The position numbers were made by a program, and so were the translations under genes. From a virus (Duplodnaviria > Heunggongvirae > Uroviricota > Caudoviricetes), in IMG/VR virus record IMGVR_UViG_3300018486_000049, positions 1 through 39,903 of that record: a stretch of 39,903 nt of DNA; one strand, 5' to 3'. Positions within the stretch are counted from its first letter, which is position 1; each line of letters begins with the position of its first letter. This document shows positions 19,431-39,738 of the stretch, one piece after another. The notes beneath the pieces were generated by a model that worked only from the letters and a program-made list of their open reading frames with translations, searched no databases and was not told the DNA's origin.

Positions 19431-20470
19431 TGGGAAAGAGTAAGAAAAACCGCGCTGCGGCGACGAATCAGCTCAAGCATAAAAGCCAAACTTCAGCCGA
19501 AGCATTCAGCTTCGGTGATCCCATTCCAGTACTTGACCGCCGCGAACTGCTGGACTATGTGGAATGCGTACAGACGGATCGCTGGTATGAGCCACCCGTA
19601 AGTTTTGACGGACTGGCGCGAACATTCCGCGCCGCCGTTCACCACAGCTCACCGATTGCAGTAAAGTGCAACATTCTGACCAGCACCTATATCCCTCACC
19701 CGCTGCTCAGCCAGCAGGCTTTTTCGCGTTTTGTGCAGGACTATCTGGTATTTGGTAACGCCTACCTGGAGAAACGCACGAACCGATTCGGTGAAGTTAT
19801 CGCCCTTGAGCCTGCGCTGGCAAAATACACCCGACGCGGGTTAGACCTGGATACCTACTGGTTTGTGCAATACGGTATGACAACCCAGCCGTATCAGTTC
19901 ACGAAAGGCAGCATTTTTCATCTAATGGAACCGGATATTAATCAGGAGATCTACGGCCTGCCCGGTTATCTTTCTGCCATTCCGTCTGCCCTGCTCAACG
20001 AGTCCGCCACGCTGTTCCGTCGAAAGTATTACATTAACGGCAGTCATGCAGGCTTCATCATGTACATGACCGATGCCGCGCAAAACCAGGAGGATGTGAA
20101 CAACCTCCGCAATGCGATGAAAAGCGCCAAAGGACCAGGTAACTTCCGCAATCTGTTTATGTACTCGCCTAACGGCAAAAAGGACGGGCTTCAGATCATC
20201 CCGTTGTCAGAAGTCGCGGCGAAGGATGAGTTTCTGAATATCAAGAACGTGAGCCGGGACGACATGATGGCAGCACACCGAGTGCCGCCGCAGATGATGG
20301 GGATTATGCCTAATAATGTAGGGGGGTTTGGGGATGTGGAGAAAGCCAGCCGGGTATTTGTTCGGAATGAACTGATGCCTTTACAAAAACGCATTGCCGA
20401 AATTAATGAATGGTTAGATGAAGAGGTAGTCAAATTTGAATATTATGGCTTAGAAAATAATCAGTCATAA
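19427..20470 (+). CDS. Q: Portal protein gpQ
   Basis: 347 aa, P2 P-Q arrangement reading toward the cos region. Confidence 0.9.
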   Translation: MMGKSKKNRAAATNQLKHKSQTSAEAFSFGDPIPVLDRRELLDYVECVQTDRWYEPPVSFDGLARTFRAAVHHSSPIAVKCNILTSTYIPHPLLSQQAFSRFVQDYLVFGNAYLEKRTNRFGEVIALEPALAKYTRRGLDLDTYWFVQYGMTTQPYQFTKGSIFHLMEPDINQEIYGLPGYLSAIPSALLNESATLFRRKYYINGSHAGFIMYMTDAAQNQEDVNNLRNAMKSAKGPGNFRNLFMYSPNGKKDGLQIIPLSEVAAKDEFLNIKNVSRDDMMAAHRVPPQMMGIMPNNVGGFGDVEKASRVFVRNELMPLQKRIAEINEWLDEEVVKFEYYGLENNQS

Positions 20471-20477
20471 AAAAGAA

Positions 20478-20508
20478 GTGAACAAGTTGAAATTATCAGC
20501 TTGTTCAC
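20478..20508. terminator. Candidate bidirectional hairpin terminator between convergent genes
   Basis: 9 bp stem GTGAACAAG / CTTGTTCAC with 13 nt loop, 8 nt after the Q stop. Confidence 0.45.
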
Positions 20509-20525
20509 TATTCTCTGTATTATCT

Positions 20526-20795
20526 CTACTGCATCCGTCCGGGTAAATCGCTTTCATTGCGTAAACGCCAAGCTAACTGTTCACGATCCCAAACTATATC
20601 GTCTTTGCTAGCCTTTCTAAAATTTGCTAGCACAGTACTGCTTATAGCGTAATTACCATTCTCATTAGTTTTGATGAACTCGTCCCCAAAGTCATTGATT
20701 AGAAATTCAACAACCTCGGACTGATACAACACACCATTAGAACGAGTGGTATTAACCATCCAGTCAACTATTTTTATCAGAGAATCATTCATCAT
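20526..20795 (-). CDS. Hypothetical small protein (about 89 aa)
   Basis: ORF in the AT-rich region between Q and the cos region; start chosen at MMNDS to limit overlap; no motif recognised. Confidence 0.45.
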   Translation of the reverse strand: MMNDSLIKIVDWMVNTTRSNGVLYQSEVVEFLINDFGDEFIKTNENGNYAISSTVLANFRKASKDDIVWDREQLAWRLRNESDLPGRMQ

Positions 20796-20994
20796 CACTC
20801 TCAGCTTTTGGAACAAATAAAACTAGAGTATCTTCATGAAAAACTCCGCGCTGGTTCTTAGCACCAATAAACCACGTACAAACTGCCATTGTAGCCGATT
20901 GGTAGTGATCAATTACCATGATTGGACCATGTCCTGTTGCATGTTTTACTTTCTGGCCCGGTGTATATTTTGCCACTCTCACGTCTCCTTTCAT
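20785..20994 (-). CDS. DUF2158-like small protein (YodC-like pattern)
   Basis: 69 aa with the G..VK...G.GP.MVI....C.WF pattern I associate with DUF2158. Confidence 0.5.
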   Translation of the reverse strand: MKGDVRVAKYTPGQKVKHATGHGPIMVIDHYQSATMAVCTWFIGAKNQRGVFHEDTLVLFVPKAESDDE

Positions 20995-21061
20995 GTGTAA
21001 GTTATCAATTTCAGAATATATCTACATTAATTGCAAGTAAACATGTTTGCGCGCGCTCGTA

Positions 21062-21074
21062 TCCCCGCCACGCC
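21062..21074. other. Candidate cos (cohesive end) site region
   Basis: Reverse complement GGCGTGGCGGGGA resembles the start of the P2/186 cohesive end as I recall it; lies in the non-coding gap between Q-side and A-side genes. Confidence 0.3.
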
Positions 21075-21453
21075 TGCCCGCTTTATGCAGTGGTTTTCAT
21101 GCACATGCATGACATGAGCAAAAGCCCGCCAGTTCTGGCGGATCTGAGCAAAGACGATCCTCAATCGATCATGCGATTTCATGCAGCATAGTCATGCACT
21201 GTCAAGGAAGTGAAAATCCGTATCTGAATGGCCACTTGAAAAACGGATCATACGGGTTTACAAAGATGAATGTTCGCTGTGAACGGGAAGCGGAAGTTAA
21301 CTTTCAGATAACATAATCCATATGCACGAGAACCTCTAAAATAGAATGGGACACCTAAGCGGGGTACTTACAACGATTCTTTCCATATTCACAGTTAACA
21401 CTCTGTTTGGCGTATTTTTATTCAAATAGCAAACACCAATAAAAGGAGTTTCC

Positions 21454-21789
21454 ATGAACAATATTCCCCCTATACCACAGTTAGGAATTTATGTCTCAAA
21501 AATCGATCCCACCCTACGTATCACTGTAACCGATGTTGATATTGTTGATGGTGAGGATGATTCTCCTGATGATGAATTGTTTTATTTAGTCCACTGGATC
21601 GAGGGGGAAGATGAAAGTGATATGACAGCAATGGGATTTGAGCTAGACCCAGTAGAGTGGCAGGCTTTCGTTGAATCTGAGCAATTAGTGTTTGAGCGTG
21701 ATCCGTACATGGATTCAATCCCCGAAAATTCAAACTTGGCAAAGATTCGGGATTTTCTCATGAAGACTAAACAGAATGATCATTCGTAA
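21454..21789 (+). CDS. Hypothetical strongly acidic protein (111 aa)
   Basis: Good ATG with GGAG upstream; Asp/Glu-rich runs (DGEDDSPDDE, EGEDESD); only plus-strand gene in this region. Confidence 0.55.
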   Translation: MNNIPPIPQLGIYVSKIDPTLRITVTDVDIVDGEDDSPDDELFYLVHWIEGEDESDMTAMGFELDPVEWQAFVESEQLVFERDPYMDSIPENSNLAKIRDFLMKTKQNDHS

Positions 21790-21943
21790 GTGTAAGCATC
21801 CATCAGGAAAATGGTTTTGTAAGTGAATCATCAACTTTTAGAGAGTCTCAGACACTCCCACTTCTGCTTCTGACACAAAGCGGACGATCACTTATCAAAA
21901 TAACCGCCCACCTTACGCCTTATTTCACTCATTGCCCAAACTA

Positions 21944-21973
21944 GCCCCCATCAGAATGAATCCTCCTGGGGGC
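21944..21973. terminator. Candidate bidirectional hairpin terminator
   Basis: GC-rich 7 bp stem GCCCCCA / TGGGGGC with 16 nt loop between convergent genes. Confidence 0.4.
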
Positions 21974-21981
21974 AACATTTC

Positions 21982-22215
21982 TTAATGCAGCCAGCTGTCG
22001 TCCTCCCACACCTTCTGCATAATTTTCATCACTTGTTTTCTTTCTTCATCCAGTTGCAGTCCGGTTAGTTCCACACCGTTAGAGCTACCTTTGCGAATGC
22101 GAATTACCGTTTTGGGATACAGGGGGCGCAGATTGCGGTAAAGCTCGGATTCAAGTGCGTCCAAGGTAGACTGGCTAATCTTCTGCTCTTTATCGATCAT
22201 TATTTCAATGCGCAT
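21982..22215 (-). CDS. DinI-like protein (C-terminal, DinI-like part of a Tum-type antirepressor)
   Basis: MRIEIMIDKEQ...VWEDDSWLH resembles DinI as recalled; SD GAGGTGA before the ATG at 22215; the frame is also open upstream to 22287. Confidence 0.7.
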   Translation of the reverse strand: MRIEIMIDKEQKISQSTLDALESELYRNLRPLYPKTVIRIRKGSSNGVELTGLQLDEERKQVMKIMQKVWEDDSWLH

Positions 22216-22225
22216 AAAAGTCACC

Positions 22226-22414
22226 TCAGCTGATGACATCCATTGAGCGGTTGTATTCGTGGCTTCTGATTTTTGCCATGAGTTCATCAGTCAATTCAGA
22301 AACCCACTGCAGAGCCAGCCCCTTCTCTTCATCACTACACTCACTAGCCGCTACAAGCTTAAGAAAAAAATCAATGCGCTGGAGCTTCAAAGACTCCAAA
22401 AAATAGTCCTGCAT
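22226..22414 (-). CDS. Small protein (62 aa), possible N-terminal part of a split Tum-like antirepressor
   Basis: GGAGG SD before the ATG; overlaps the upstream-open DinI frame out of frame; LexA box in its promoter. Confidence 0.5.
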   Translation of the reverse strand: MQDYFLESLKLQRIDFFLKLVAASECSDEEKGLALQWVSELTDELMAKIRSHEYNRSMDVIS

Positions 22415-22456
22415 CTTTCCTCCTATGACACCAAAACAATACTGTATACATAACCA

Positions 22457-22472
22457 CTGTTTATATTTACAG
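22457..22472. promoter_or_regulatory. LexA (SOS) box overlapping the promoter of the Tum-like module
   Basis: CTGTTTATATTTACAG, a perfect CTGT-N8-ACAG with AT-rich spacer, 43 bp upstream of the ATG at 22414; a half-site-like CTGTATACATAACCAC lies just upstream. Confidence 0.65.
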
Positions 22473-22566
22473 TATATAATAATCTTACTGATGTAAAACG
22501 TTTTTTTACGTTCATCGGCCTGATATGCCTGGTATTATTAAGAGCACGAATTGTTAACCCGCGTAA

Positions 22567-27122: not shown

Positions 27123-27632
27123 TCACAGCAAACCGAATGAAGCACCGAGGCCAGTCACGGTATCAACTGCACTCGCCATCGCAGGATTAGTCTGTAAACG
27201 GGCCTGCAATGAAACAGCGGCCAGCGCCATCAGTCGTGTTACAGAGTTAATGCTGCTGATAGCATCACGACGACCTGCACTGGTTTTTACATCGCCAGAT
27301 ACCGCACCTGCAGCAACACGCCCGATCTCTGCGGTTGCACTCATGACGTAATGTGGCAGTTTCTCTTTTGCCACCTCATTAATCGGTACGCATGGCAGGC
27401 AGTGAATCTGAGCCAGAAAACCATCTACCAGCGTTGAATCTTCAGTCAGATCGGTAAGCAGCCAGATTTCTGGTGCGGTTAATAAATGAGGTTGAGCCGG
27501 GTTCAGCTTGTTCCGCAGAATCTGCACATTCATGCCAGCACGTTCTGCCAGTTGCACCAGGTTGTGGCGCAGCGCGAATGCACGACAGGCTTCATCAAAA
27601 TGTGGATGTTTGGAAACTTGGTAATCAAACAT
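27123..27632 (-). CDS. cII: CII-like lysogeny-establishment regulator (186 CII type)
   Basis: 169 aa from [10 protein letters not shown]; HTH-like [19 protein letters not shown]; sits right after the Apl/Cox-like gene, the 186 apl-cII arrangement; assignment by recall only. Confidence 0.55.
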
Positions 27633-27664: not shown

Positions 27665-27886
27665 CTAGTTGAATACAACATTGCAATCAGTAAGTGCATC
27701 AACGGTAAGAGCAGCAAGGTTGATCATTACCTTTTCTCTTTTCTTGTCTTTCCGAAGGCGATGACGAGGGATGCGACCATCAGCCAGCATATCGTTGATT
27801 GTGTCGATAGAAAGACCAGTAAGTTCGCTATAACGCTCAATTGTGACGTGCGGCGTATTCAGAGTTATTGAAATGTTAGGGGTCAT
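27665..27886 (-). CDS. Apl/Cox-like excisionase and switch regulator
   Basis: 73 aa HTH protein from ATG 27886, first gene of the lytic operon, divergent from the repressor. Confidence 0.6.
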
Positions 27887-27974
27887 GATGCAACATCTCC
27901 TATTGGCTTGTGGTGAGCCGGTATTAATCGTGACGAAAACTTCACAAAACGGAGAATAGGTTCGCATAAAGAAT

Positions 27975-28916
27975 ATGTCAACTAATAAAATCACATTTCG
28001 CCATATTGAAGATCATCTGAAAGCCATGGTCATGCAGAATCGAGGAGGGCAAAAAGTCATTGAGAGAATACTCATGGCCTATGGTTTCAAATCACGCCAA
28101 GCATTCTGTAACCACCTTGGTATTTCACAAAGTACAATGGCTAACAGATATGCACGCGATACCTTCCCTGCTGATTGGGTTGTTATATGTTCAATGGAAA
28201 CTGGCGCATCAATCGAATGGTTAGCATTTGGTTTAGATGCTGAAGAAGGAGTGCCAGTTCCTTCGCCAGAACGGCATGCTGAAAAACAGTCTGCAGATGA
28301 ATTTTGCAATGAAGTTCACACCCCCACGATAAAGTTCGATAATGAAAACCACATGGATTTCACTCGAGGGGGTAAAGCAGCAATAGAGCGAATTGTTAAG
28401 GCTTACGGTTACAAAACGCGCCAAGCCTTAGCCGATCACCTTGGCATCTCAAAAAGCACATTAGCTACACGATACATGCGAGACATTTTTCCGGCAGACT
28501 GGATCATCCAATGCTGTTTAGAAACAGGAGTGTCTCTCGAGTGGTTATCTTTTGGTAAGGGGCATTCCAATCAAACAAAGCTAAGTGGGTTGCTTACATT
28601 AGACTGCTATGATCTACGTGACGGCAAACTTACTGATCAAAGAGAATTAATCGTTTCGAGCGAAATTTTACCTCAAAATTTAAAACATCCCTATATAGTT
28701 AATTCCGCAAATGATTCATATATCATTAGCAAAGAGGAGTATCTTAGCGATGGTCTATGGTTAGTATCTATTAACGGAGAATTTACTTTTAGAGACATAT
28801 TTAAACTTCCAAACAATCGCATCCGCGTTGAAAACACAAAATATAGCTTTGAATGCGATAAAGAAGATTTGGAATTTAATAATAAAGTTAAAGGAATAAT
28901 TAGAAAAAGGGTTTAA
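27975..28916 (+). CDS. cI: CI-like immunity repressor with tandemly duplicated N-terminal DNA-binding domain
   Basis: 313 aa; residues about 23-85 and 122-184 are an internal repeat (about 60 percent identical, IERI..AYG.K.RQA...HLGIS.ST.A.RY.RD.FPADW...C.ETG.S.EWL.FG); C-terminal domain SDGLWLVSINGEF...; divergent from Apl/Cox. Confidence 0.8.
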   Translation: MSTNKITFRHIEDHLKAMVMQNRGGQKVIERILMAYGFKSRQAFCNHLGISQSTMANRYARDTFPADWVVICSMETGASIEWLAFGLDAEEGVPVPSPERHAEKQSADEFCNEVHTPTIKFDNENHMDFTRGGKAAIERIVKAYGYKTRQALADHLGISKSTLATRYMRDIFPADWIIQCCLETGVSLEWLSFGKGHSNQTKLSGLLTLDCYDLRDGKLTDQRELIVSSEILPQNLKHPYIVNSANDSYIISKEEYLSDGLWLVSINGEFTFRDIFKLPNNRIRVENTKYSFECDKEDLEFNNKVKGIIRKRV

Positions 28917-28918: not shown

Positions 28919-29968
28919 ATGAGCTTTACGAAAACTATTGAATTTGCAAACTATACCTTAAATTTTGGAGAGGACAAAGTTCTCTTAGATGCTTTTGATT
29001 GCATTGTTTTTCCTTCATTTTTCGCACAAAAATACGTTAGAAAATTTAAAGATACAGAATATTTCTTTACTGACACAAAAATTATTACGTTAGATACTAC
29101 AGATTCAGATTTTATTGGTCCTATAGTTCCAACAATTGCATTGTGTGGCCGCATTATAAAAAAGACCATATTTAAACGAGATCAAATATTTCAAGATGGT
29201 CAATTAATTCGAGATCACAGGACGCTAGAAAGTCACCCCAGCTCTATTTTTATTCTTATGCTTAATGAGCACAGATTAATGCTTTGCAAAGAGGTTTCTG
29301 GAGCCCCTACCCTAGAAGAATTTGAAAATACTAGCAAGTATTGCCTTGCACAGCGATATAATTCTTTTGTGGATTACGAAGTAAAAAAAAATAAAAGAAT
29401 TAGAAAGAAAAAATCATACATTGATCGACTGTATAAAAAAGATATTTATCGTAAACTAGGAGCCCCCAAATTACGGGTTACCCCCTTAACAGACCCAAGA
29501 TCATTGAGCAATTTTGTTGAACTCTTTTCTGTTGTTAATAGATTATCAATTGAGTTATTACCAACAAATAGTGAAAATATATCTCTTGATGGCTTCTGGA
29601 GGAAATTTGAACAAGAAAAAGAAGAACTTAATAGTAGTAAAGCTCAATTAGTATACACAAATAAAAATGAAGATGGTTTAAATTCTGATGCCGTCATTCA
29701 AAAAACAACAAGTGCAACCCGAATGGCCAACTCTAAAGTAATTATCAGTGGTAAAGATGAACACGGAGCAAGGCTATCAGGGAATAATGATAGTTTTACT
29801 CTAAAAGCATCAAGGCCACAACTTAGTTCTGATTTGGAAAGAGCTGCTCAAGAGGCGTATTCTGCATTCACAGAATTAAAGGATGAAGGAAATATTATTA
29901 TTCCAGAACGTGAAGATTATACTAAAATTTTTTCCAAGTTAACATCAATAATTTCTAGGTGGCTATAG
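28919..29968 (+). CDS. Cargo protein 1 of repressor-linked cassette, function unknown (349 aa, soluble)
   Basis: ATG 2 nt after the repressor stop; AT-rich; basic patch KKNKRIRKKKSYIDRLYKKDIYRK; no catalytic motif recognised. Confidence 0.7.
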   Translation: MSFTKTIEFANYTLNFGEDKVLLDAFDCIVFPSFFAQKYVRKFKDTEYFFTDTKIITLDTTDSDFIGPIVPTIALCGRIIKKTIFKRDQIFQDGQLIRDHRTLESHPSSIFILMLNEHRLMLCKEVSGAPTLEEFENTSKYCLAQRYNSFVDYEVKKNKRIRKKKSYIDRLYKKDIYRKLGAPKLRVTPLTDPRSLSNFVELFSVVNRLSIELLPTNSENISLDGFWRKFEQEKEELNSSKAQLVYTNKNEDGLNSDAVIQKTTSATRMANSKVIISGKDEHGARLSGNNDSFTLKASRPQLSSDLERAAQEAYSAFTELKDEGNIIIPEREDYTKIFSKLTSIISRWL

Positions 29969-29969
29969 T

Positions 29970-30575
29970 ATGAAATATACATTCAACCCAGAAGATCTGA
30001 CCAAAGAGCGATCTTTGCATGATGTTTACAAATTAACTAAAAAAATAAAGGTCAATTCATTTGACTTTTATTTCACATTATTGTTAGTGATATTATTATC
30101 TATTAATGCTTTTTGTCTATCTTCATCACCAGAGTTAATTTCATCTATTAGACAATGGACACCTTTAGTATTCGGATTCACTACAACAACATTAGGTTTT
30201 TTAATTACTGGATTTACAATATTTGCAACCATAAATAAACCTGAACTTTTCCTTTCATTAATGGAGTATAAGCATCCATTATACGGGATAAGTTACTTAA
30301 AATATGTTTATGGTGTATTTATGAGAGTATTTATATATTTCATATTTTGGTCTGTTATCTATCTTTTAGTCCTTCTTTTCGGGCAAGAAAATGGATTGGC
30401 TACAAAATTACTCAGAGCCTTAATGTTTTCTCATTGCACTAAAGTTGTTGGAGTTCAAATACTATATATACTCGTAGGAAGCAGTGCAGTGTTCCTTGTA
30501 TTAACTTTAAAAACTTTCCTGTTCAATATTTATGCTATGTTAATGCAATCTCTACGCTGGGAAGTAGAAAGATAA
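29970..30575 (+). CDS. Cargo protein 2, small multi-pass membrane protein (201 aa)
   Basis: ATG 1 nt after gene 1 stop with AGGTGG SD; about four hydrophobic helices; AT-rich. Confidence 0.7.
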   Translation: MKYTFNPEDLTKERSLHDVYKLTKKIKVNSFDFYFTLLLVILLSINAFCLSSSPELISSIRQWTPLVFGFTTTTLGFLITGFTIFATINKPELFLSLMEYKHPLYGISYLKYVYGVFMRVFIYFIFWSVIYLLVLLFGQENGLATKLLRALMFSHCTKVVGVQILYILVGSSAVFLVLTLKTFLFNIYAMLMQSLRWEVER

Positions 30576-30664: not shown

Positions 30665-31717
30665 ATGGCAGTACGAAAACTCACCACAGGAAAATGGCTA
30701 TGCGAATGTTACCCCGCGGGACGTAGTGGACGTCGTGTGCGTAAACAATTCGCCACCAAAGGTGAAGCTCTGGCTTTTGAGCGTCACACGATGGAAGAAA
30801 CCGAAGCAAAGCCCTGGCTGGGTGAATCAGTGGATCGTCGAACACTGAAAGACGTGGTTGAGCTATGGTTCAAACTACATGGTAAATCTCTGACAGCTGG
30901 GCAGCATGTCTATGACAAATTGCTGTTGATAGTTGACGCTCTGGGCAATCCCCTTGCAACCGATCTCACCTCTAAAATGTTTGCCCACTATCGAGATAAA
31001 CGCCTGACAGGAGAGATCTACTTCAGCGAAAAATGGAAGAAAGGAGCAAGCCCGGTCACCATTAACCTGGAGCAAAGCTATCTTAGTAGTGTTTTTAGCG
31101 AACTATCCCGCCTGGGCGAATGGTCGTATCCGAACCCACTGGAGAACATGCGAAAATTCACCATCGCAGAAAAAGAGATGGCATGGCTTACCCATGAGCA
31201 GATTGTTGAATTACTGGCTGATTGCAAACGTCAGGACCCAATTCTGGCACTGGTAGTTAAGATATGCTTAAGCACAGGCGCACGCTGGCGAGAAGCCGTA
31301 AATCTTACTCGTTCACAGGTGACCAAATACCGAATTACCTTTGTAAGAACGAAGGGGAAGAAAAACAGAAGCATCCCTATCAGTAAAGAGCTTTACGAAG
31401 AGATCATGGCGCTTGATGGGTTCAATTTCTTCACAGACTGCTATTTTCAATTTTTATCCGTGATGGAAAAAACGTCTATCGTGCTCCCTCGCGGTCAACT
31501 CACACACGTTCTGCGCCATACGTTTGCAGCGCACTTCATGATGTCGGGTGGAAACATCTTGGCCTTACAAAAAATTCTCGGACATCACGATATAAAAATG
31601 ACGATGCGTTACGCACATCTGGCACCGGATCATCTGGAAACGGCGCTCCGTTTCAATCCTCTGGCAACGCTGCCAAGTGGCGACAAAGTGGCGGCAGCGG
31701 TTGGCATTACCCCGTAA
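30665..31717 (+). CDS. int: Tyrosine integrase (P2/186 Int family)
   Basis: 350 aa with C-terminal catalytic signature LRHTFAAH...GHHDIKMTMRYAHL. Confidence 0.9.
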   Translation: MAVRKLTTGKWLCECYPAGRSGRRVRKQFATKGEALAFERHTMEETEAKPWLGESVDRRTLKDVVELWFKLHGKSLTAGQHVYDKLLLIVDALGNPLATDLTSKMFAHYRDKRLTGEIYFSEKWKKGASPVTINLEQSYLSSVFSELSRLGEWSYPNPLENMRKFTIAEKEMAWLTHEQIVELLADCKRQDPILALVVKICLSTGARWREAVNLTRSQVTKYRITFVRTKGKKNRSIPISKELYEEIMALDGFNFFTDCYFQFLSVMEKTSIVLPRGQLTHVLRHTFAAHFMMSGGNILALQKILGHHDIKMTMRYAHLAPDHLETALRFNPLATLPSGDKVAAAVGITP

Positions 31718-31880
31718 TAACCACCACTGACCACCAACCCAACTTATTGTTTTTACTCTAACTTATTGTTTTCATTAACCCGTTTACATAAATGGGTTTT
31801 TTGTTGCCTGAAATTTATGCCGTTTAAAATCATGATGTTAGAAGCACTGTTTTTTAACGATGGCGACAAATTGGCGGCAG
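31678..31880. repeat. att-like junction flanked by an imperfect 20 bp direct repeat
   Basis: TGGCGACAAAGTGGCGGCAG (31678-31697, inside the int 3-prime end) and TGGCGACAAATTGGCGGCAG (31861-31880, next to the ogr stop) flank an AT-rich 160 bp segment. Confidence 0.45.
31741..31772. repeat. Tandem 13 bp direct repeats in the att region (possible Int arm-type sites)
   Basis: AACTTATTGTTTT at 31741-31753 and 31760-31772; followed by a weak hairpin plus T-run (31777-31802). Confidence 0.4.
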
Positions 31881-31882
31881 AG

Positions 31883-32101
31883 TCAAAGAGAGAGCACCAC
31901 CTGTCCTGATTTCATTGGATGCGGCTGAACCGGATTTGACTCTTTTGGCGTTGCAATCGAACGAACAAAAGTTTCATGGGTAACAAAAGTATGGCTGCAG
32001 TTAATGTTCTGGCACTGGTTGTAACGCTCTTTGGTCAATGAAGATACCTGAAAACTGCTGCGAGTATGGGCGGCACTTCCACACAGTGGGCAAATCATCA
32101 T
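31883..32101 (-). CDS. ogr: Late gene activator Ogr/Delta-family zinc-finger protein
   Basis: 72 aa from MMICPLCGSAAH... with CPLC...CQNINCSH zinc-binding pattern matching Ogr as recalled. Confidence 0.85.
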   Translation of the reverse strand: MMICPLCGSAAHTRSSFQVSSLTKERYNQCQNINCSHTFVTHETFVRSIATPKESNPVQPHPMKSGQVVLSL

Positions 32102-32191
32102 TTTTCGAGTTCTCCCCATTTTTGCTAAATTCACAATAATGATACCGCATTATTCCATTTTGAAAACTTAAAAGTTCTCTATTACGAAGAA

Positions 32192-33292
32192 TCATTCCAT
32201 TTCGAAATCATTAATCTTCACTTCAAGCTCCAGACTGGTCGTAAAACCGTTATCCGGATTGACAGTATGCGTCAGGGTGGTAATAGTCCATTCCGCATCA
32301 TCTATCGGCTGTTTAAAGCCTCTGACTTTCACTGGCATTTCCGTGTAGAGATCCGCCCGACCTTCTGCCAGTTGTAGCGAGAATGACGCAACGCCACGTT
32401 GCAGGCGTTCCCACTGCATTTTCGCCGCCCGTTCGGCGTTGCTCCGGTTGGCATAGGTGCGATTAAGTACCAGCACGTTTTCATCTGTACCCACCAGGTA
32501 ATCGCCCTGCTTCGCTTCCGGCTCTTTCTTCTGCTTCTTAGTCCTGCGCTTACGCTTCACCGTGGTGCTTTCTTTCTTCGCGGGTTCGCGGGTATGCAAC
32601 CAGCTGGCAATTACGCCCGTGTAGGCTCCGCGATCTGCCAGGGTAAAGCGGTGACTGTCGCCGTCCTTACGTGTGATAGTGATAACCGGTAGTGGTTTAC
32701 CGCTGGCGCTTTTACCCTGTCCCTGCCGGATGAATAACAGATTGCCATTTTTCACCGACGCAATAGCACCGTACTGGCGCGCCAGCCGCATCAGAAAACT
32801 GCCGTCACTCTCATTGGTCTGGTCTATATGCTCCACAGGTTTATCCGACAGGTCTTCACCCAATGCCATCTTCAGTTTGTGCCGCGCAGCTATTTCCTTC
32901 ACCACTTCCCCAACGGTGGTCTTGTGCCACGATTTTTCACGGCGGGTATTCAGGGTTTCACGAAAATCAGCACTTCGCGCCCGGATAGTCAGGCGGTCCG
33001 GTGCGCCAGTGTGTTCAATCTCGTCCACCGTGAATGCTCCTTTCGGGAAAAGCGACTGCCCCTTCCAGCCCAACGCCAGCGTAATGACCGCACCACGGCG
33101 CGGCAGCACGATTTTTCCGTCGGCGTCGTCCAGCTCCAGATCAAGCTGGTCCGCTTCAAAGCCCCGATTGTCCGTCAGCGTCAGACTCATCAGGCGGTTA
33201 TCCAGCACAGTGGTGATATCCTTACCCTCAATACTGATGCTGAATGCCGGAGTTTTGTTGCCTTTGCTAAGCAGTTCAGAGCTGAAATTCAC
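32192..33292 (-). CDS. D: Tail protein D (gpD), second diverged copy
   Basis: 366 aa, start overlaps the U stop, precedes ogr as in P2. Confidence 0.85.
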   Translation of the reverse strand: MNFSSELLSKGNKTPAFSISIEGKDITTVLDNRLMSLTLTDNRGFEADQLDLELDDADGKIVLPRRGAVITLALGWKGQSLFPKGAFTVDEIEHTGAPDRLTIRARSADFRETLNTRREKSWHKTTVGEVVKEIAARHKLKMALGEDLSDKPVEHIDQTNESDGSFLMRLARQYGAIASVKNGNLLFIRQGQGKSASGKPLPVITITRKDGDSHRFTLADRGAYTGVIASWLHTREPAKKESTTVKRKRRTKKQKKEPEAKQGDYLVGTDENVLVLNRTYANRSNAERAAKMQWERLQRGVASFSLQLAEGRADLYTEMPVKVRGFKQPIDDAEWTITTLTHTVNPDNGFTTSLELEVKINDFEME

Positions 33293-33774
33293 GACAGCAG
33301 CCCTCCCACCGTTTTACTGATATCGCTTAAGGCAGACGTTGTCGTATCCTGCAAATTATTCAGCTGCGCACTGAGATCACCGAACATATCGGACAGGGAT
33401 TCATCCACCCGTTTGAGCGACAGGGTGAACTCAATCCGGCGCGGCATACCATCGCGGAAAAACTCCGTTTTAGTCTGATTCAGTCCCTCAATCACATACA
33501 TGCCGTAAATCGTGCCGCTGCCTTCAATCAGGGGCCATGCTTTCCCCTGTTCTGCCATCTGCTCCAGTGCCAGCAACGACAGCCTGCCGCCTGTTATTTC
33601 CGGCATAAGAACACCGGAAAGCGTCAGCATGTCGTTTTCCGGTCCCAGAAACTGCGTAGACGGACGTCGGTTTACCCGACTGTTTGCCGCATGTCGCCAG
33701 CTGCGTTGATACTGCAGTTCCTGATACGGAACGGTGCGCAGCATAAACACGTACAATCCCAGCACCATCATCAT
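33289..33774 (-). CDS. U: Tail protein U (gpU), second copy
   Basis: 161 aa, homologous but clearly not identical to 425-889. Confidence 0.85.
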   Translation of the reverse strand: MMMVLGLYVFMLRTVPYQELQYQRSWRHAANSRVNRRPSTQFLGPENDMLTLSGVLMPEITGGRLSLLALEQMAEQGKAWPLIEGSGTIYGMYVIEGLNQTKTEFFRDGMPRRIEFTLSLKRVDESLSDMFGDLSAQLNNLQDTTTSALSDISKTVGGLLS

Positions 33775-36700
33775 GCGTCGTATCCCCCCTGATCGCTGTA
33801 GTTACTCCTGGCTTTTGCCTTCAGCCTGCGTTCACGTTCATCAAGCTGGCGTGCCACCTCCCGCGCAATATCCTGCGCACTTTGTCCTGGCTGCGTCTGA
33901 ATGATGATCTGCGTCGGTGCCTCAATCCGTTGAACGAGCGGCACAGTGGCTGCGCGACTCACAATTGCTTCTCCACCTTTCGCGGGAAGTGCCAAAGGGT
34001 GCAACGGTGGAAGCTCTGCTGGCGCGGCAGCAACGCCCATCATTCCGGCAACAACGGCAGCCAGTGCAGCTGTATTTCTCCGGCTGGTCACATTTGCCGG
34101 GCCGTTAACAATTTCCGGCCCGTTTTCACCGACGATGCCAAACTGCCCGCGCGGGATATACCCGCCGCTGTCATACATCCCCGCAAAGCCATATCCCCAT
34201 GATGGAAAACCACCCGATGGCATCATCACTTTACCGTCTGCATTCACCGTCGCAGGTTGCTGACGCGTCACGCTTTCCGGCAGTTTTGCCTTTGCGGCCT
34301 CTTTACTGACAATGCCGAGCTTCTCCAGCAACCAGGAAACGCCGGATTTCAGGGAGTCCAGCGGATGCATGACCATATTCAGCCCTTCCGCCAGTGCCTC
34401 CCCGAATCGCCGCCCCATTGCCGCTGCGCTCTGCAGTTCGGCAGAGGTCGACTTAACGGGCGTCAGCAGATCAGTAAACCAGCCCCACAGCGCCTGCACT
34501 TTGTCGCCAATCCACTGGAACACGGGCTTAAGCGGTTCGAACGCTGCACTGATGGGACCTGCCGCCGCTTTGAATCCTTCCACCACGCCACCGAGAAATG
34601 CGGTGATGGGTTGCCAGTATTTCCAGACAACCAGCGCCACGCCCGCCAGTGCAGTAACCACAAGACCTATCGGACTGAGCAGAGCACCTAACAGACCAGA
34701 TATGGCATACAGGGCAACGCGCAGCATCGCCAGTGGACCAGATGCCAGTACTCGCAGCACCGTGCCTGCGGCGGCCAGTCCACCGCGCAGTACCGCCAGA
34801 GGATTCATAAACATCACAGCAACAGCACGTAAACCGGATAATCCAGACCGCAAAAGTGCAACCGGCGCACCTGCTACAGTTTTCAGGACATTTCCCGTCA
34901 GTGATGCCGTGCGGCGCAAAGACGACAACGGCGCAGTAAGTAAACCTGCGGCGTTGCCCGATGAAGCAAGCCCGCGTCGCAGCAGTGCCAGTGGTGCGCC
35001 AGCCAGCCAGGACAACGCGCTGCTGGTTCGAGTTACTGCTGCCGTAACGGAAGATAACGTTTTGATACCCAACACAGAGAATCCCAGACGGATCACTGCC
35101 AGCGGCCCCAGCACTGCAGCCAGCGCCACCGCTAAGGTGCCGAGGCCGACGGTAACCGCAGCCACAACAGCCGATGCTTTCATCAGTGTGCCTGTCAGTT
35201 CCGGGTTAGCTTCCACCCAGCGACGCAACGCCCCCGTGACGCTTTTCACCGTGTACAGAATATCCATCAGCGGCTGGCGCAGCGTTTCGCCCAGGCTGCT
35301 GAAGGTGTTCTGCGCTCCGGTTTTGACCAGCAACCACTGCGCAGAAAGTGAATCCTTGTTAATGTCGGATTCTTTCTGCATGGAGCCGAGCGCATCATTG
35401 CCCGCTGTCAGTTTTAACTGACGCTGCAGTTCCGGCAGGTTGTTTGCCAGTTTCGCCGCGTCATCGCCAAACTCTTTACCAAACAACATAGTCATGGCAG
35501 ACAGGCGCTTGTCCTGCGGCAGCGCGTTTACCTTCTCCAGCACGCGCTGGATGGTTCCCATCGCATCCTTCGTCATCTGCTTTTCAATCACTTCAGGATT
35601 GAGTTTCAGCAGATTCATCCCTTCAAAGAAACTCTTGCTTTGCATGGTGGCAATGGACAATTCACGCACCATCGCGTTTGCTGCACTGGCTGCAACCTCT
35701 GGCGCAGCGCCCAGTGTCAGGAAGGTGGAACCCAGCGCCGCCGCTTTACGATAATCCAGACGGTCAGCCACACCGCCCAGACGTTGCATCACATCAATGA
35801 TGTCTGCCCCTTTCGACATGGCGTTATCATCCAGATAGTTCAGCGCATCACCGAGCTGTTCAATATTGCGGGTGGGGATTTTGTAGAGCTGGGCGATTTT
35901 CCCCAGACTTTCTGACAGTTCATCCGCTGGCAGCTCAAAGGCTGTTGCCGCCTTTGCTGCCGTACTGGCGAAGGCCAGCAGGTCACGTTTCTGATCTTCC
36001 CAGCTGTCGTCAGGGTTTGCGACGTTCATGCGCGCACCACCTTCAACCAGTGCAGCGAAGTCCACCGCACCGTTTTCCATCGGCAACTGTTCGCTGGCAG
36101 CCTTGATGGCATCCTGCATTTCATAAAAACGTGCAGTGCGGTTGCCATTATCGTCACGCAAACCATTGACCTGCTTTGCCACACCTTTCATGGCATCTTC
36201 CATGCTGGTATAGCTTTTTACTGCCGCCATCACTGGCGCACCCATTGCCAGCCCTGCAGCCGTGGTGGTGGCTCCGGCACCTGCAATACGATCACGCACC
36301 TCCAGCGAACGGGCATAACTGGCACGCGCTGCATTCATCCTGCGCTGAGCTTCCCCCAGTCGCTTCAGCCGCGCCTCCTGTTTCGAAAGTTCCTGGTTAT
36401 AACGTGATGTTTCACGGGCTAAACGGGCAGTTGCTCCCGCATCGTCTTTCGCAGAAATTCCCGCCCGGTACAGTTCAGCACGCACAAGCGCCGTCTGCTG
36501 CTGCAGCTTTTTCTGGCGTTCTTCCAGGCGCTGAACAGCCAGCCGTTGACGGCCCAGAGCAACAACCTGACGTTGCGAAGGCGGCCCCATCGCTCCCAGT
36601 TCCTGACTGAGCAAATTTGCACGCTGGCGGGCATAGTTCAGCCTGTCGCCTAATTTCTGATTTTCTGCCTGCAGCTTTCGGAAGCTGTCCAGACTGCTCC

Positions 36701-36848
36701 CGGCCTGATCAAGCTGCTTTATTGCATCGCGGGATTTTTTGACAGCAGCAGCCAGTTCTCTTGAACTGGCCTGCGCAGATCGAAATGGGCGGGTGAGCTT
36801 GTCAACCGCATTAAGAATGACCTGCAGACGCAGGTTGTTATCACTCAT
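33771..36848 (-). CDS. T: Tail tape measure protein (gpT), second copy, 1025 aa
   Basis: Coiled-coil N-terminus, hydrophobic repeats, 216 aa longer than the first copy. Confidence 0.9.
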   Translation of the reverse strand: MSDNNLRLQVILNAVDKLTRPFRSAQASSRELAAAVKKSRDAIKQLDQAGSSLDSFRKLQAENQKLGDRLNYARQRANLLSQELGAMGPPSQRQVVALGRQRLAVQRLEERQKKLQQQTALVRAELYRAGISAKDDAGATARLARETSRYNQELSKQEARLKRLGEAQRRMNAARASYARSLEVRDRIAGAGATTTAAGLAMGAPVMAAVKSYTSMEDAMKGVAKQVNGLRDDNGNRTARFYEMQDAIKAASEQLPMENGAVDFAALVEGGARMNVANPDDSWEDQKRDLLAFASTAAKAATAFELPADELSESLGKIAQLYKIPTRNIEQLGDALNYLDDNAMSKGADIIDVMQRLGGVADRLDYRKAAALGSTFLTLGAAPEVAASAANAMVRELSIATMQSKSFFEGMNLLKLNPEVIEKQMTKDAMGTIQRVLEKVNALPQDKRLSAMTMLFGKEFGDDAAKLANNLPELQRQLKLTAGNDALGSMQKESDINKDSLSAQWLLVKTGAQNTFSSLGETLRQPLMDILYTVKSVTGALRRWVEANPELTGTLMKASAVVAAVTVGLGTLAVALAAVLGPLAVIRLGFSVLGIKTLSSVTAAVTRTSSALSWLAGAPLALLRRGLASSGNAAGLLTAPLSSLRRTASLTGNVLKTVAGAPVALLRSGLSGLRAVAVMFMNPLAVLRGGLAAAGTVLRVLASGPLAMLRVALYAISGLLGALLSPIGLVVTALAGVALVVWKYWQPITAFLGGVVEGFKAAAGPISAAFEPLKPVFQWIGDKVQALWGWFTDLLTPVKSTSAELQSAAAMGRRFGEALAEGLNMVMHPLDSLKSGVSWLLEKLGIVSKEAAKAKLPESVTRQQPATVNADGKVMMPSGGFPSWGYGFAGMYDSGGYIPRGQFGIVGENGPEIVNGPANVTSRRNTAALAAVVAGMMGVAAAPAELPPLHPLALPAKGGEAIVSRAATVPLVQRIEAPTQIIIQTQPGQSAQDIAREVARQLDERERRLKAKARSNYSDQGGYDA

Positions 36849-37277
36849 CGTTGGCCCCGCTTCTCTGAATCGCTTTATACCGCCATTCCAGCACTTCGGT
36901 CAGCGGCATAACGTCAGTAACGGATGGCGGCCAGTGAAAAATGGTGGCGATATCTGCCACCAGATCGTCAACCGTCAGGCTGTCGGTAAACCGGCAAGCA
37001 CCGACTTCTTCAACAAAAAAGTGACAACCTCAACCGACATGGCAGTGAGATCTGCCGGGTCCATCTCTGCAATTTCCTGTGCAGTCAGTGCCGGACTGGA
37101 GATGCGGGGGATCACGGTCATCATCGCGTTTACATCCATATCCATAATGGCCTGCAGGCGTGTACCGCGCAGCGCACCGGACTGCGGTTTACGCAGCACA
37201 ATTTCGGTGATTTCTGTTTTACCGCGCTTGATGGGGGTATCCAGTTGAATGGTCTTTTCAGTCTGCTTATCGCTCAT
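36841..37277 (-). CDS. E+E-prime -1 frameshift product, second copy
   Basis: Plus-strand CAAAAAA at 37014-37020; -1 frame open to a TGA at 36841-36843 overlapping the T start. Confidence 0.6.
36975..37277 (-). CDS. E: Tail assembly chaperone gpE, second copy
   Basis: 100 aa, ends just after a TTTTTTG slippery site. Confidence 0.8.
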   Translation of the reverse strand: MSDKQTEKTIQLDTPIKRGKTEITEIVLRKPQSGALRGTRLQAIMDMDVNAMMTVIPRISSPALTAQEIAEMDPADLTAMSVEVVTFLLKKSVLAGLPTA

Positions 37278-37331
37278 TTTGCTGTCCTGTCAATTGGGTT
37301 CTGGCGCGGTATCCCGCGCCGTTCAGATATA

Positions 37332-37847
37332 TCAGAGGCCGAGGGCGTTGCGGTGCGCTTCCATCAGGTCCACACCGTCCACAATTTCCACCATGTTGAT
37401 AAGGTCCACTTCATAGAGCACCTCACCATTGATGGTCAGCTTCGCGTAGCTGTTGGTACTGGTCACTTTGGTGGTGTTGCTTTCGCCCGTCTTCCACTCG
37501 CCGGAATCCACTTCTTTGTGACGTCCACGCACGACAAGCTCCACGGCCTGCACTTCCCCGGTATCGTCACGCTGAATAGAGCCGGTAAAGCGCAGCTGGA
37601 TGCCATCCACCGTGGCTTTACCCATCTGTTTAAACAGCAGCAATTCAGTACCACCAATGGAAAATTCTGTGTCCAGCGCACTGTCATCAAGCCCCAGATC
37701 CACATCCACCGCACCCGGCATTCCGCCGCCGCGATACTTCTCATATTTGCGGGTAAATTTCGGCAGCGTCAGCGACTCAACGATCCCCTGCCAGTTGTTC
37801 CCGTCGTTAAACAGGTTCAGGTGTTTTAATTTGCGTGGTAATGCCAT
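37332..37847 (-). CDS. FII: Tail tube protein FII, second copy
   Basis: 171 aa, homologous to 3819-4337. Confidence 0.9.
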   Translation of the reverse strand: MALPRKLKHLNLFNDGNNWQGIVESLTLPKFTRKYEKYRGGGMPGAVDVDLGLDDSALDTEFSIGGTELLLFKQMGKATVDGIQLRFTGSIQRDDTGEVQAVELVVRGRHKEVDSGEWKTGESNTTKVTSTNSYAKLTINGEVLYEVDLINMVEIVDGVDLMEAHRNALGL

Positions 37848-37856
37848 GTTGTCCCC

Positions 37857-39029
37857 TTACGCGCTGACCTGGCTGGCGAAATTCACCAGGTACTGATCGG
37901 TGATGCGCTGACGCAGCATCAGGTTTTCAAGTGGCGGCACTGGCGTGTAGTCGTAGTCGATGGTGAGTTTTCCGGCTTTCAGCGTGTCTTTGTCGTTCAC
38001 CGACTCATCCAGCCAGCAATCACCACCAATGAGATAGCCCTGACTGACCAGGCTGCGCATTTTGGCGCGGATACCTTCGATAATGTCGCGGGCCAGCGAC
38101 GGGTTAAGCGGTTTATCCACCGCCCACATGTGTGCTTCTGCCATCGTGTCCATCAGCACCTGCGCCGTGCGGGTGTAGTTTTCGAAGGCAAAGAGCGGGT
38201 CATCACTCAGGCAGCGGGAACCCCAGAAGCGGAAACCGTCTTTACGCACAAGCGTGGTGACGTCGTTCTGGTTCAGCAGACCTGCATCGGTTGCCGGGTC
38301 CTGCAGATCCCAGAACACATCTGCAGAAATTCCGGTGACACCGTTCACGCCCACGTTGGACAGGCTTTTGTGCCATCCGGTCTGCTCGTCAATTTTGGCG
38401 CGCAGACCAAGCGCACGGGCGGTGGCATATGCCGTTGCTTCGGCATTCAGCACCGTGTCCCAGCCAGTAAAGTCAGGCCAGATCAGCATCCCTTCGCGCT
38501 GGCTGAAGTTTTCGCGGTAAGTGATCGCCTCCTGCACTGTCTTGCAGCCATACGCTGACAGGTAAGCAAATCCACGCAGGCTTTGCGCCACGCTCAGCAA
38601 CTCAGTAGCTACCGCCTTGGTGTCGTGGCCTGGCACGCCGAGAATGCGCGGTTTAACGCCGAGCTGTGACTGGGCAGATAACAGGGCTTTCATACCTGTT
38701 TTTTTACCTTCAGCAGTCACTGCGCCGATGATATTGGTCGTGGTTTCGTCTTCCGTTTCACCCTGCGGCACACGCACAACAATGGTCACGGGTTTTGCCT
38801 GGTCAGCGATGGCATCCAGCGAACGGGCCAGAGTACCTGACTCACCCGCTTTACCGCTGGCAGTCAGCACATCAGTGATCAGCACGGGTTTATTAAGAGG
38901 AAACATTTTTGCATCGGCATCATCGCCCGTGCAGACCATACCCACGATGGCGGTGCTCACCGTGGTAATAGATCGGGTGCCTTCGTTGACTTCAACAACG
39001 CGCACCCCGTGGTGGTAATCCTGAGCCAT
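37857..39029 (-). CDS. FI: Tail sheath protein FI, second copy
   Basis: 390 aa, homologous to 4350-5537. Confidence 0.9.
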
Positions 39030-39105
39030 AGTGGCGAACCTCCTGATTGGATTAGGCTTCGCCCTATGTTGAAGTGATTGTGCCTGACAAACAGCTAAGC
39101 GCAGT

Positions 39106-39123
39106 TGTGTCGTTATTCACACA
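39106..39123. promoter_or_regulatory. Candidate Ogr-type late activator site (TGT-N12-ACA) upstream of FI copy 2
   Basis: TGTGTCGTTATTCACACA, about 85 bp upstream of the FI start codon. Confidence 0.45.
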
Positions 39124-39171
39124 AAATAACGGTATTTGTCTGCTTGCAGGGATAATCAACATAATGCTGAT

Positions 39172-39738
39172 TCAGGGGGATTCATTGATCTTATTTGCCG
39201 GAAATTTTCTATAAATGGTAGAAACGCCTACATCAAAAATCAGTGCAATACGCTGTCTTGATTCTCCGGCCTCGAGTAAACGCCCAATCTGTGCCCACTG
39301 TTCGGTGGTCAACTTAGGACGGCGTCCACCTACTCTGCCTTTGGCACGAGCTGCAGCCAGCCCTGCCCTGGTACGTTCAACTATCAGTTCGCGTTCCATT
39401 TCAGCCAGGGCACCCATGACATGAAAAAAGAAACGGCCCATTGGGGTACTGGTATCAATACTGTCAGTCAGGCTTCTGAAATTCACACCACGCTGGCGCA
39501 ACTCTTCTATCAGCGTAACAAGATGCCGCATACTGCGCCCCAACCTGTCCAGCTTCCAGACAACCAGCGTGTCTCCTGCCGATAGTGTCCTGAGTAGTTT
39601 TTTCAGCCCCGGTCTGTCGGACTTAGTGCCACTGATTTTGTCCTCAAAAATCTGCTCACATCCCGCGCAGTTCAGTGCATTACGTTGCAAATCGGTGTTC
39701 TGGTCATTTGTTGACACGCGTACATAGCCAATAAGCAT
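39172..39738 (-). CDS. Serine recombinase, DNA invertase (Gin/Pin/Cin-like), second copy
   Basis: [22 protein letters not shown]... closely resembles Gin/Pin as recalled; catalytic Ser in RVS. Confidence 0.9.
   Translation of the reverse strand: MLIGYVRVSTNDQNTDLQRNALNCAGCEQIFEDKISGTKSDRPGLKKLLRTLSAGDTLVVWKLDRLGRSMRHLVTLIEELRQRGVNFRSLTDSIDTSTPMGRFFFHVMGALAEMERELIVERTRAGLAAARAKGRVGGRRPKLTTEQWAQIGRLLEAGESRQRIALIFDVGVSTIYRKFPANKINESP

Follow-up and report, generated by a model that had tools for sequence, protein, structure and literature searches.

Genes at the repressor locus

The DNA analyzed here, referred to as the window, is a 39,903-nucleotide stretch of a Caudoviricetes virus (IMG/VR record IMGVR_UViG_3300018486_000049, positions 1–39,903), and the subject of this work is its immunity repressor gene cI (27975..28916, plus strand). 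The gene encodes a repressor of the phage 186 CI type with 313 amino acids (aa; the coordinates include the stop codon), which was identified from the list of open reading frames (ORFs), from Pfam, and from alignment with the structure of 186 CI (Protein Data Bank (PDB) entry 2fjr_A). In place of the single DNA-binding head of 186 CI, the protein contains two, termed N1 and N2 in the following sections. It is the only CI-type gene product of the window.

The first gene of the lytic operon is a 73-aa apl-like gene on the minus strand (27665..27887), which is excisionase/Cro-like and was recognized as an ORF that is annotated in relatives; Pfam gave no match for it. It is followed by cII (27123..27632, minus strand; PF06892, E-value (E) 4.5e-42), a lysogeny-establishment activator of the CP76 family, for which homologues suggest an ATG start giving 169 aa. 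On the plus strand, the lysogenic operon ends with the integrase gene int (30665..31717; PF24624 and PF00589). The order cII(−), apl(−), cI(+), int(+) matches the annotation of 186; in the window, cI and int are separated by two cargo genes. An initial annotation of this DNA had described the cI product as a CI-type immunity repressor, and its position opposite apl–cII and upstream of int agrees with that description.

A 186-type repressor with two DNA-binding heads

Pfam detected two stretches of the Phage_CI_repr family (PF07022, E 2.5e-57 for the whole protein) and one Phage_CI_C domain (PF16452, residues 213–305, E 1.3e-19) in the window CI. When the N-terminal third of the protein was compared with the remainder by BLASTP, residues 23–86 aligned without gaps to residues 131–194, with 41 of 64 positions identical (64%, E 3e-33). 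The earlier reading of the protein as two helix–turn–helix (HTH) copies in front of one C-terminal domain is thus confirmed by both searches. Its interval for the first copy (23–85) was right, while the second, given as 122–184, in fact spans residues 131–194 and had been placed about nine residues off.

Five parts can be distinguished along the chain, all encoded on the plus strand. The N-terminal extension (residues 1–22, 27975..28040; MST.K.TFRH..LK..IMQN) is typical of one of two head types, type A, and contains a predicted helix at residues 13–21; it is kept both in two-headed CIs and in single-headed CIs of about 207 aa. N1 (residues 23–86, 28041..28232) is a type-A HTH domain of five helices, modeled with a predicted local distance difference test (pLDDT) score of about 80, and has the recognition helix SQSTMANRYAR. 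The inter-head linker (residues 87–130, about 44 in length, 28233..28364) is fast-evolving and predicted to be disordered (pLDDT 25–34). N2 (residues 131–194, 28365..28556), defined by Pfam, BLASTP, and the head tree described below, is a type-B HTH domain with the recognition helix SKSTLATRYMR. The C-terminal oligomerization domain (residues 213–313, 28611..28913) was assigned from PF16452 and from a Foldseek match to 2fkd_A, the C-terminal domain of 186 CI.

The AlphaFold2 monomer model (mean pLDDT 74.9, predicted template modeling score 0.38) reproduces this layout, with a helix at residues 13–21, five-helix domains at 26–85 and 133–193, a low-confidence segment at 90–130, and a beta-rich domain at 206–310. 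Residues 10–185 of 186 CI (2fjr_A) align contiguously with residues 136–309 of the window CI, and Foldseek superimposed the C-terminal domain on 2fkd_A over 110 residues with a template modeling (TM) score of 0.92 and a root-mean-square deviation of 1.7 Å. From these two matches it follows that N2 and the C-terminal domain together correspond to the whole of 186 CI. In the model, the first 130 residues appear as an addition on a flexible tether. The single head and length of about 190 aa that characterize 186-type CIs are therefore not found in the window CI, which has two heads and 313 aa. The initial annotation had described 186 CI as single-headed and shorter than 200 aa, and at 192 aa this is correct. 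An internal start at M127 (ATG at 28353) was considered as a source of a single-headed isoform and rejected: it has no evident ribosome-binding site, and the ATG occurs in the clade of the window but not in other alleles.

Distribution of two-headed CI proteins

The two-headed form is found far beyond the window. The 4.2-kb neighborhood from cII to int is present at 97.9–99.9% identity in 11 complete Escherichia coli genomes, and the CI protein itself is 98–99% identical in 13 records of Klebsiella phages, 4LV2017 among them, and 100% identical in six IMG/VR contigs. The cluster of the window CI comprises 215 member sequences, and a second clade of equal length is about 52% identical to it. 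Among the best 120 clusters at 90% identity, 46 contain two full heads and measure 291–330 aa. Most of these (35/46), the window CI included, combine a type-A first head, preceded by the 22-residue extension, with a type-B second head; we refer to them as the A-B subtype.

An exhaustive search with one head as query against 1.84 billion representatives at 50% identity delimited the family to 194 representatives at E ≤ 1e-3. At least two matched head stretches were seen in 39 of the best 150 of these 194, and all nine two-stretch representatives of 285–358 aa that were scanned showed two PF07022 matches followed by PF16452 (9/9). These nine distant proteins come from Hafnia, Pantoea, Citrobacter, Enterobacter, Edwardsiella, and Shewanella. 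The two-headed loci used in the comparisons below were supplied by a scan of IMG/VR, and a scan of representative genomes gave almost only single-headed CIs. The two-headed CI is thus a common minority form, which has been in databases for about two decades without being characterized. The initial annotation had named two findings that would speak against its reading, namely that this length is the norm among homologues and that the repeat is an assembly duplication. The two-headed form is indeed widespread, yet it is a minority and not the norm, and the second possibility conflicts with the presence of the same gene in many independent records.

The existence of an internal repeat is all that speaks for an artefact, in which a repeat was collapsed or expanded during assembly or two adjacent genes were merged during annotation. 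At the DNA level, the two copies (28041–28232 and 28365–28556) are 65.6% identical, their longest common exact run is 8 nucleotides (nt), and their identities at the three codon positions are 0.73/0.83/0.41. This pattern indicates an old divergence under constraint at the protein level rather than a repeat that could confuse an assembler. Furthermore, the gene recurs in numerous phage records and complete genomes of independent origin, and its reading frame is open in 44 distinct two-headed alleles, with a ratio of nonsynonymous to synonymous divergence (dN/dS) well below 1 in both heads. A merger of two genes is also contradicted by the internal ATG of M127, which is not conserved across the other alleles. 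We regard the probability of an artefact as negligible.

A full-text literature search found no paper that describes a two-headed 186-type CI. The CIs of PsP3 and PhiECO3 were noted to be longer, and the difference was put down to “a longer C-terminal domain” (Nilsson et al, 2011; PMC3448106). As the extra length was described there only as C-terminal, the doubling of heads went unrecognized. Contrary to that wording, the additional residues of PSP3 CI form a second N-terminal HTH domain according to Pfam.

Two repressor lineages joined in one protein

Comparison of the heads with each other points to their separate origins. Across the two-headed set, N1 and N2 are on average 60% identical, both within and between proteins, compared with 74% among N1 domains and 78% among N2 domains. 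When 162 heads were placed in a neighbor-joining tree, type A and type B fell on either side of its deepest split. The type-A side contains 35 N1 domains together with 47 heads of single-headed CIs of about 207 aa; the type-B side contains all 46 N2 domains, 22 heads of CIs of 186–198 aa, and 11 N1 domains. In a subset of 77 taxa, this split was recovered in 194 of 200 bootstrap replicates, and the 186 head and both heads of PSP3 fell on the type-B side. Two-headed CIs accordingly comprise a majority with the A-B arrangement and a minority with two type-B heads (B-B). Since both subtypes exist, head doubling must have occurred at least two times.

Each head of the window CI has its own single-headed kin. 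N1 is 86–90% like the sole head of the CIs of about 207 aa; on average, the heads of this group are 71% identical to N1 domains, and those of the 187–198-aa CIs are 74% identical to N2 domains. Traces of a former N-terminus can be seen in front of N2, where HMDFTRGGK resembles MDFNSGGK, the N-terminus of the 187-aa CIs, and KFDNE resembles KYPNE of the 198-aa CIs. The flanking DNA is mosaic as well. The segment 27665–27934 is 98.1% identical to that of a phage with a 198-aa CI (L070), and the adjoining segment 27935–28040 only 45%. Comparison with phages carrying CIs of about 207 aa gave the opposite pattern, with 46% identity up to 27934 and 63–66% beyond. The switch DNA thus has a sharp mosaic breakpoint at about 27934/27935, beyond which the DNA next to pR was imported in one continuous module with the extension and N1.

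These results bear on the claim of the initial annotation that the DNA-binding domain had undergone a tandem duplication, which does not hold as worded: the two heads represent two old paralogous types, and the switch DNA around them is mosaic. A recent in situ duplication of the head-coding segment followed by divergence would account for two tandem copies of the same Pfam family with 64% identity. It would not explain why N1 and N2 lie on opposite sides of the deepest split in the head tree, each with single-headed kin, why the two heads of one protein are no more alike than heads taken from different proteins, or why the flanking DNA contains a breakpoint. We consider a recent duplication very improbable. 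Instead, the data give good support to the view that the window CI is a chimera of two CI lineages, and that this chimera is the sole functional repressor of the prophage, which is 186-like and belongs to the P2 family.

Promoters and candidate operators

A pR-like lytic promoter was found at 27953..27981 on the minus strand, with a −35 element TTGACA (27981..27976), a 17-nt spacer, and a −10 element TATTCT (27958..27953). It scores 10/12 in a consensus scan, its −35 element overlaps the ATG of cI, and it sits at the same place relative to cI as pR of 186. The heptamer ATGTCAA, which is shared by the pR −35 element and the cI start, is kept in 37 of 42 distinct switch sequences, the set in which operator conservation was also tallied. 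A putative pL-like lysogenic promoter lies on the plus strand at 27868..27896 (−35 element TTGAAA, 27868–73; 17-nt spacer; −10 element CAACAT, 27891–96). Its placement follows the annotation of 186, where the −35 element is inside apl and the −10 element just outside the apl start, and the conservation of TTGAAA-17-CAAYAT in 186-like loci. The predicted pR and pL are arranged face to face, with start sites about 43 nt apart, compared with about 63 in 186.

Three candidate operators, O1 to O3, are 11-bp direct repeats with the consensus WTCACAnnnCG at −34, −14, and +16 from the cI ATG. O1 (TTCACAAAACG, 27941..27951, plus strand) covers the pR start site, and its WTCACA core is found at −34 in 42/42 switch sequences. 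O2 (TTCGCATAAAG, 27961..27971, plus strand) lies in the pR spacer, with the core at −14 in 40/42. O3 (ATCACATTTCG, 27990..28000, plus strand) is located upstream of the pR −35 element within cI codons 6–9 (ITFR) and is present at +16 in 42/42. The three central bases of the repeats vary among these sequences. The codons of the N-terminal extension therefore overlap both the pR −35 hexamer and a candidate operator: between 27975 and 28000, codons 1–3 coincide with the −35 element (ATGTCAA on the coding strand, TTGACAT on the other), and codons 6–9 hold O3. Synonymous divergence (pS) is low in the first 22 codons of cI, at 0.25 compared with about 0.55 elsewhere in the gene.

The repeats occur at the same positions in phages with type-A single-headed CIs of about 207 aa. 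Two-headed phages of the B-B subtype have three palindromes of the CTCAC-N5-GTGAG type at pR, spaced 22 and 29 bp apart. Sequence comparison thus suggests that the type of operator at pR goes with the type of N1 and not of N2. The motif WTCACANNNCG is not enriched across the window (51 matches with one mismatch, where 70 are expected), and the case for O1–O3 accordingly rests on position and conservation across phages rather than on counts.

Further information on O3 comes from loci that contain two cI genes. In L082 (2375–3924), and also in L083, L084, L086, and L097, a 191-aa cI that faces apl is followed by a 307-aa two-headed cI. In the L082 type, the two-headed gene is 62% identical to that of the window and begins 50 bp downstream of the first, without a promoter and operator region of its own; the switch region of L083 is identical to that of L082. 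This arrangement suggests that the two-headed cI of this type is an accessory gene, possibly one for superinfection immunity. In four such switchless alleles (L082, L084, L086, and L097), O3 is degraded to TTAAAATTTAG, with a change in the residues that it encodes. The decay of O3 away from pR provides a natural control, which favors a role of O3 at the level of DNA.

A doubled head had been expected to change operator geometry, and no such change was seen. The three candidate sites at pR, 20 and 29 bp apart, resemble the layout of single-headed relatives and of 186, so that no new geometry is evident. Doubling of operators as a signature of two heads was likewise rejected, as A-B, B-B, and single-headed phages all have three promoter-proximal sites. 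A nested palindrome that could serve as operator for a four-headed dimer (TTGTGG 27908, TCGTGA 27928, TCACAA 27942, and TCGCAT 27962, symmetric about 27937.5) was mostly rejected. Its left elements are also found in single-headed phages with 198-aa CIs, without the right partner, and travel with the type of apl, which makes them more likely to be Apl sites or a part of pL.

Candidate targets of the second head

The recognition helix of N2 in the window, SKSTLATRYMRD, is the same as that of an abundant 189-aa CI of E. coli. Within the window, we found neither operators of the 186 B type (ATTCAC-N5-GTGAAT) nor the palindromes of phages with 198-aa CIs (CCCAAATGGG and TCCCCAAWTGRGAWC) beyond chance expectation.

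One site of a similar kind is located inside cI in other alleles. All 23 alleles whose N2 helix reads ...ANRY carry a CCCAAWTGAGA-like site at cI nt 344–365, at the junction of linker and N2 (23/23). The match is 10–11/11 in 22 of them and 9/11 (CCGAAATGAGT) in L118. All 21 alleles of the ...ATRY clade, to which the window belongs, are without the site. Comparison of the linker/N2 junctions shows that the window has what appears to be a degenerate relic of this palindromic operator-like site, GTTCGATAATGAAAAC (28334..28349, plus strand), in the codons for KFDNEN. The site is similar to palindromes P1 and P2 of phages with 198-aa CIs and, on the opposite strand, to the central pR operator of 186 (TCTCAATTGGG). 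Across cI alleles L003–L133, the N or T at one position of the N2 helix (SKSTLA[N/T]RY) co-varies perfectly with the presence of the internal site; this co-variation is suggestive only and probably reflects a single evolutionary event.

A working model for the two-headed repressor

These observations can be combined into a model, which as a whole we consider moderately probable. Residues 127–313 would constitute a complete 186-type CI, consisting of a type-B head and the C-terminal domain. To its N-terminus, a module from the lineage of CIs of about 207 aa would have been fused in frame, comprising the 22-residue extension, a type-A head, and the flexible linker of about 44 residues. The module would have arrived together with the pR of the donor lineage and its three WTCACAnnnCG direct-repeat operators. 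N2 and the C-terminal domain would provide dimerization and higher-order assembly as in 186, and the tethered N1 heads would read O1–O3 at the pR start, in the spacer, and upstream of the −35 element, thereby switching off transcription of apl–cII. N2 would remain an active second reader of DNA, either adding avidity on TCAC cores or binding type-B operators. The data establish the architecture and its spread, the purifying selection on both heads, the chimeric origin, and where O1–O3 lie and how well they are conserved; the promoters, the oligomeric state, and the sites read by each head are inferred.

Several observations weigh against this model. The putative pL matches the consensus weakly and falls under the threshold of the scan tool. 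The assignment of O1–O3 to N1 builds on co-inheritance and co-variation, and phylogenetic linkage could give the same picture. The recognition helices of type A and type B differ at few positions only, which means that N2 could bind the same TCAC cores or even be the main reader. Operator sequences differ greatly across the family although the recognition helices hardly vary, which weakens any assignment of sites from sequence. Finally, no cognate type-B palindrome (similar to CCCAAATGGG or to the 186 B type), and thus no target of N2 in its own genome, was found anywhere in the window. N2 may increase avidity by binding TCAC cores as well; it may have distal targets that were missed here; or it may act on other phages.

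The last of these possibilities leads to a different reading, in which immunity is bispecific: N1 would control the phage's own pR, and N2 would mainly repress incoming phages with type-B operators, such as the very common ones with CIs of 187–198 aa, so that a single repressor would confer immunity to two groups of phages. Such a role would fit the N2 helix, which is identical in the abundant 189-aa CI of E. coli, and the lack of type-B palindromes within the window. It would also fit the two-headed genes that follow an ordinary 191-aa cI in L082, L084, L086, and L097, one of which belongs to a cluster of 98 member sequences (the L082-type allele). As these genes occupy the cargo position between cI and int and have no switch of their own, they can act there only in trans or as accessories. 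The proposal is purely inferential, however, and operator specificity cannot be read from the helix sequence in the CI family. Moreover, most genes of the ANRY clade keep the internal site that resembles the palindromes of 198-aa-CI phages, which suggests targets of N2 in the phage's own genome. We therefore treat bispecific immunity as a tentative alternative that is rather unlikely to be correct.

Selection on the parts of the protein

Selection was assessed in the 44 distinct two-headed alleles. The dN/dS ratio is 0.064 for N1, with a mean amino-acid identity of 88%, and 0.121 for N2, with 79%; the corresponding values are 0.57 and 27% for the linker and 0.44 and 39% for the C-terminal domain. 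Both heads are under strong purifying selection, and their recognition helices are almost invariant (SQSTMANRYAR in N1 and SKSTLA(N/T)RYMR in N2).

In these alleles, the heads and the switch DNA are far more conserved than the C-terminal domain and the linker. This is the reverse of the pattern in usual immunity repressors, which diverge in their recognition helices. The fast change of the C-terminal domain might serve to keep the repressors of co-resident prophages from mixing in one oligomer, or it might stem from an arms race with antirepressors.

An antirepressor is suggested by another part of the prophage. A perfect match to the LexA-box consensus (CTGTTTATATTTACAG, 22457–22472) is located upstream of a DinI-like ORF of 100 aa on the minus strand (21982–22287). 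By analogy, the two resemble the Tum module of 186, which would imply induction by an antirepressor and not by self-cleavage of the repressor. The presence of this module allows a further reading, in which N1 is a regulatory or decoy head that serves as a docking site for, or a shield against, an SOS-induced Tum-like antirepressor, and N2 binds all operators. N2 and the C-terminal domain alone indeed correspond to a complete 186 CI, and in the structural model N1 is placed on a long flexible tether. Yet no part of the protein is more conserved than N1, with its invariant recognition helix; N1 closely resembles the sole head of the CIs of about 207 aa, which must bind DNA there; and the pR-proximal repeats were inherited together with it. 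A decoy role of N1 thus appears improbable.

Comparison with known repressors

The closest characterized system is 186 CI (2FJR, 2FKD), which assembles seven dimers into a wheel and binds three strong sites at pR as well as the flanking sites FL and FR (bioRxiv 10.1101/2021.10.29.466366). The window shares with 186 the Pfam families of the head and the C-terminal domain, the gene order, predicted face-to-face promoters, three candidate promoter-proximal sites, and a putative Tum-like SOS module. In contrast to 186 CI, the window CI has 130 extra residues (extension, head, and linker), and the palindromes found at pR of 186 are replaced by candidate operators in the form of 11-bp direct repeats with TCACA as core.

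Two P2/186-like phages have long CIs encoded at the same genomic position as that of the window. The CI of Salmonella phage PSP3 has 286 aa and likewise contains two PF07022 domains and one PF16452 domain. The CI of PhiECO3, a prophage of CFT073, has 289 aa and is grouped with the two-headed proteins by its annotated length only. Unlike in the window CI, both heads of PSP3 CI lie on the type-B side, with 32–46% identity to the window heads, and an unrelated gene takes the place of apl.

Single-headed relatives resemble different halves of the window system. The CIs of about 207 aa (MST..ITxRH) have the extension, the type-A head, and the DNA of O1–O3 and pR, and the Enterobacterales CIs of 187–198 aa have the type-B head and the C-terminal domain; both differ from the window CI in having one head. 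The group with 198-aa CIs also has the apl–pL side of the window switch.

The immunity repressor C of P2, a member of the same phage family, is described in passages of PMC2995052 and PMC1904268 as acting on direct-repeat operators at the early promoter, and it has no sequence similarity to CI (PMC3448106). C is unrelated to the window CI, half its size, and a dimer with a single head per subunit.

Eukaryotic POU domains and engineered single-chain 434 repressors are further proteins with two linked DNA-reading modules, and a monomeric two-domain repressor has been described in a mycobacteriophage (PMC9283540). These bipartite binders are like the window CI in joining two DNA-reading modules in one chain. 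They differ in having other folds and in binding as monomers to one composite site, while the heads of the window CI are carried on what is predicted to be an oligomerizing 186-type scaffold.

Implications for immunity and annotation

186 CI, whose wheel wraps operator DNA, is among the best-studied alternatives to lambda CI. The proteins described here represent a widespread natural variant of this repressor, previously uncharacterized, in which each subunit has a second head on a flexible tether. Provided that both heads bind DNA, nature would offer in this variant an experiment on the effects of head number and tethering on cooperative wrapping and looping, and would show how module shuffling creates or combines immunity specificities. 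Cross-immunity among the very common P2/186-like prophages found in E. coli, Klebsiella, and Salmonella may then also be explained. For studies of the 186 switch, the proteins are of interest as wheel-forming repressors that would have to work with a pair of heads on every subunit, and that may combine two immunity specificities.

It is conceivable, although we would not expect it, that nature has produced a bispecific repressor, with the head and operators of one 186-like immunity group grafted onto the complete repressor of another, in which one head serves the phage's own switch and the other silences incoming phages of a second, very common immunity group. Were this true, a wheel of the 186 type would carry up to 28 heads of two specificities, and the second cI alleles in the cargo slot would be the same device in the form of a pure superinfection-immunity gene.

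The overlap of cI codons 1–9 with the pR −35 element and an operator is an example of compact dual coding, for which the decay of O3 away from pR serves as the control. For annotation, our results mean that “CI” proteins of 285–330 aa are genuine and represent neither fused nor mis-assembled genes.

Neighboring elements of the prophage

The two cargo genes between cI and int (28919–30575) encode proteins of 349 aa and 201 aa and have a low GC content (0.33–0.36, compared with about 0.55 for the phage). Neither gene gave a match in Pfam or PADLOC. The 201-aa protein looks membrane-bound, as judged from its hydrophobic sequence, and in some genomes RefSeq names a “DUF4747 family protein” inside the cargo stretch. 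In relatives, the slot between cI and int holds an AAA_15/AAA_21 ATPase with a DUF4276 protein (L156), a 505-aa protein (L082), or an ATP-dependent nuclease (other E. coli). The slot looks like a variable hot spot for cargo or defense genes.

Another region of lower GC content (0.43) is found at 20000–22500, with the portal gene on one side and the replication gene A on the other. It includes an ORF of 111 aa on the plus strand (21454–21789), which had no match in Pfam or PADLOC.

Downstream of int (31718–39903), the window contains a second set of P2-type tail genes, with D (32192–33292), U (33289–33774), and a tape measure gene (33771–36848, 1025 aa), followed by FII and FI, which extend to 39029. 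A first set, at the left end (1–5540), has the same order and orientation, with a tape measure protein of 809 aa (901–3330). The two sets point to two different P2-like prophages that are integrated in tandem, the immunity region of the second being outside the window. A search for this region in E. coli genomes yielded only a strain that carries an ordinary single-headed phage in two copies. A tandem arrangement at the site adjacent to rcdA is also present in E. coli CFSAN061772.

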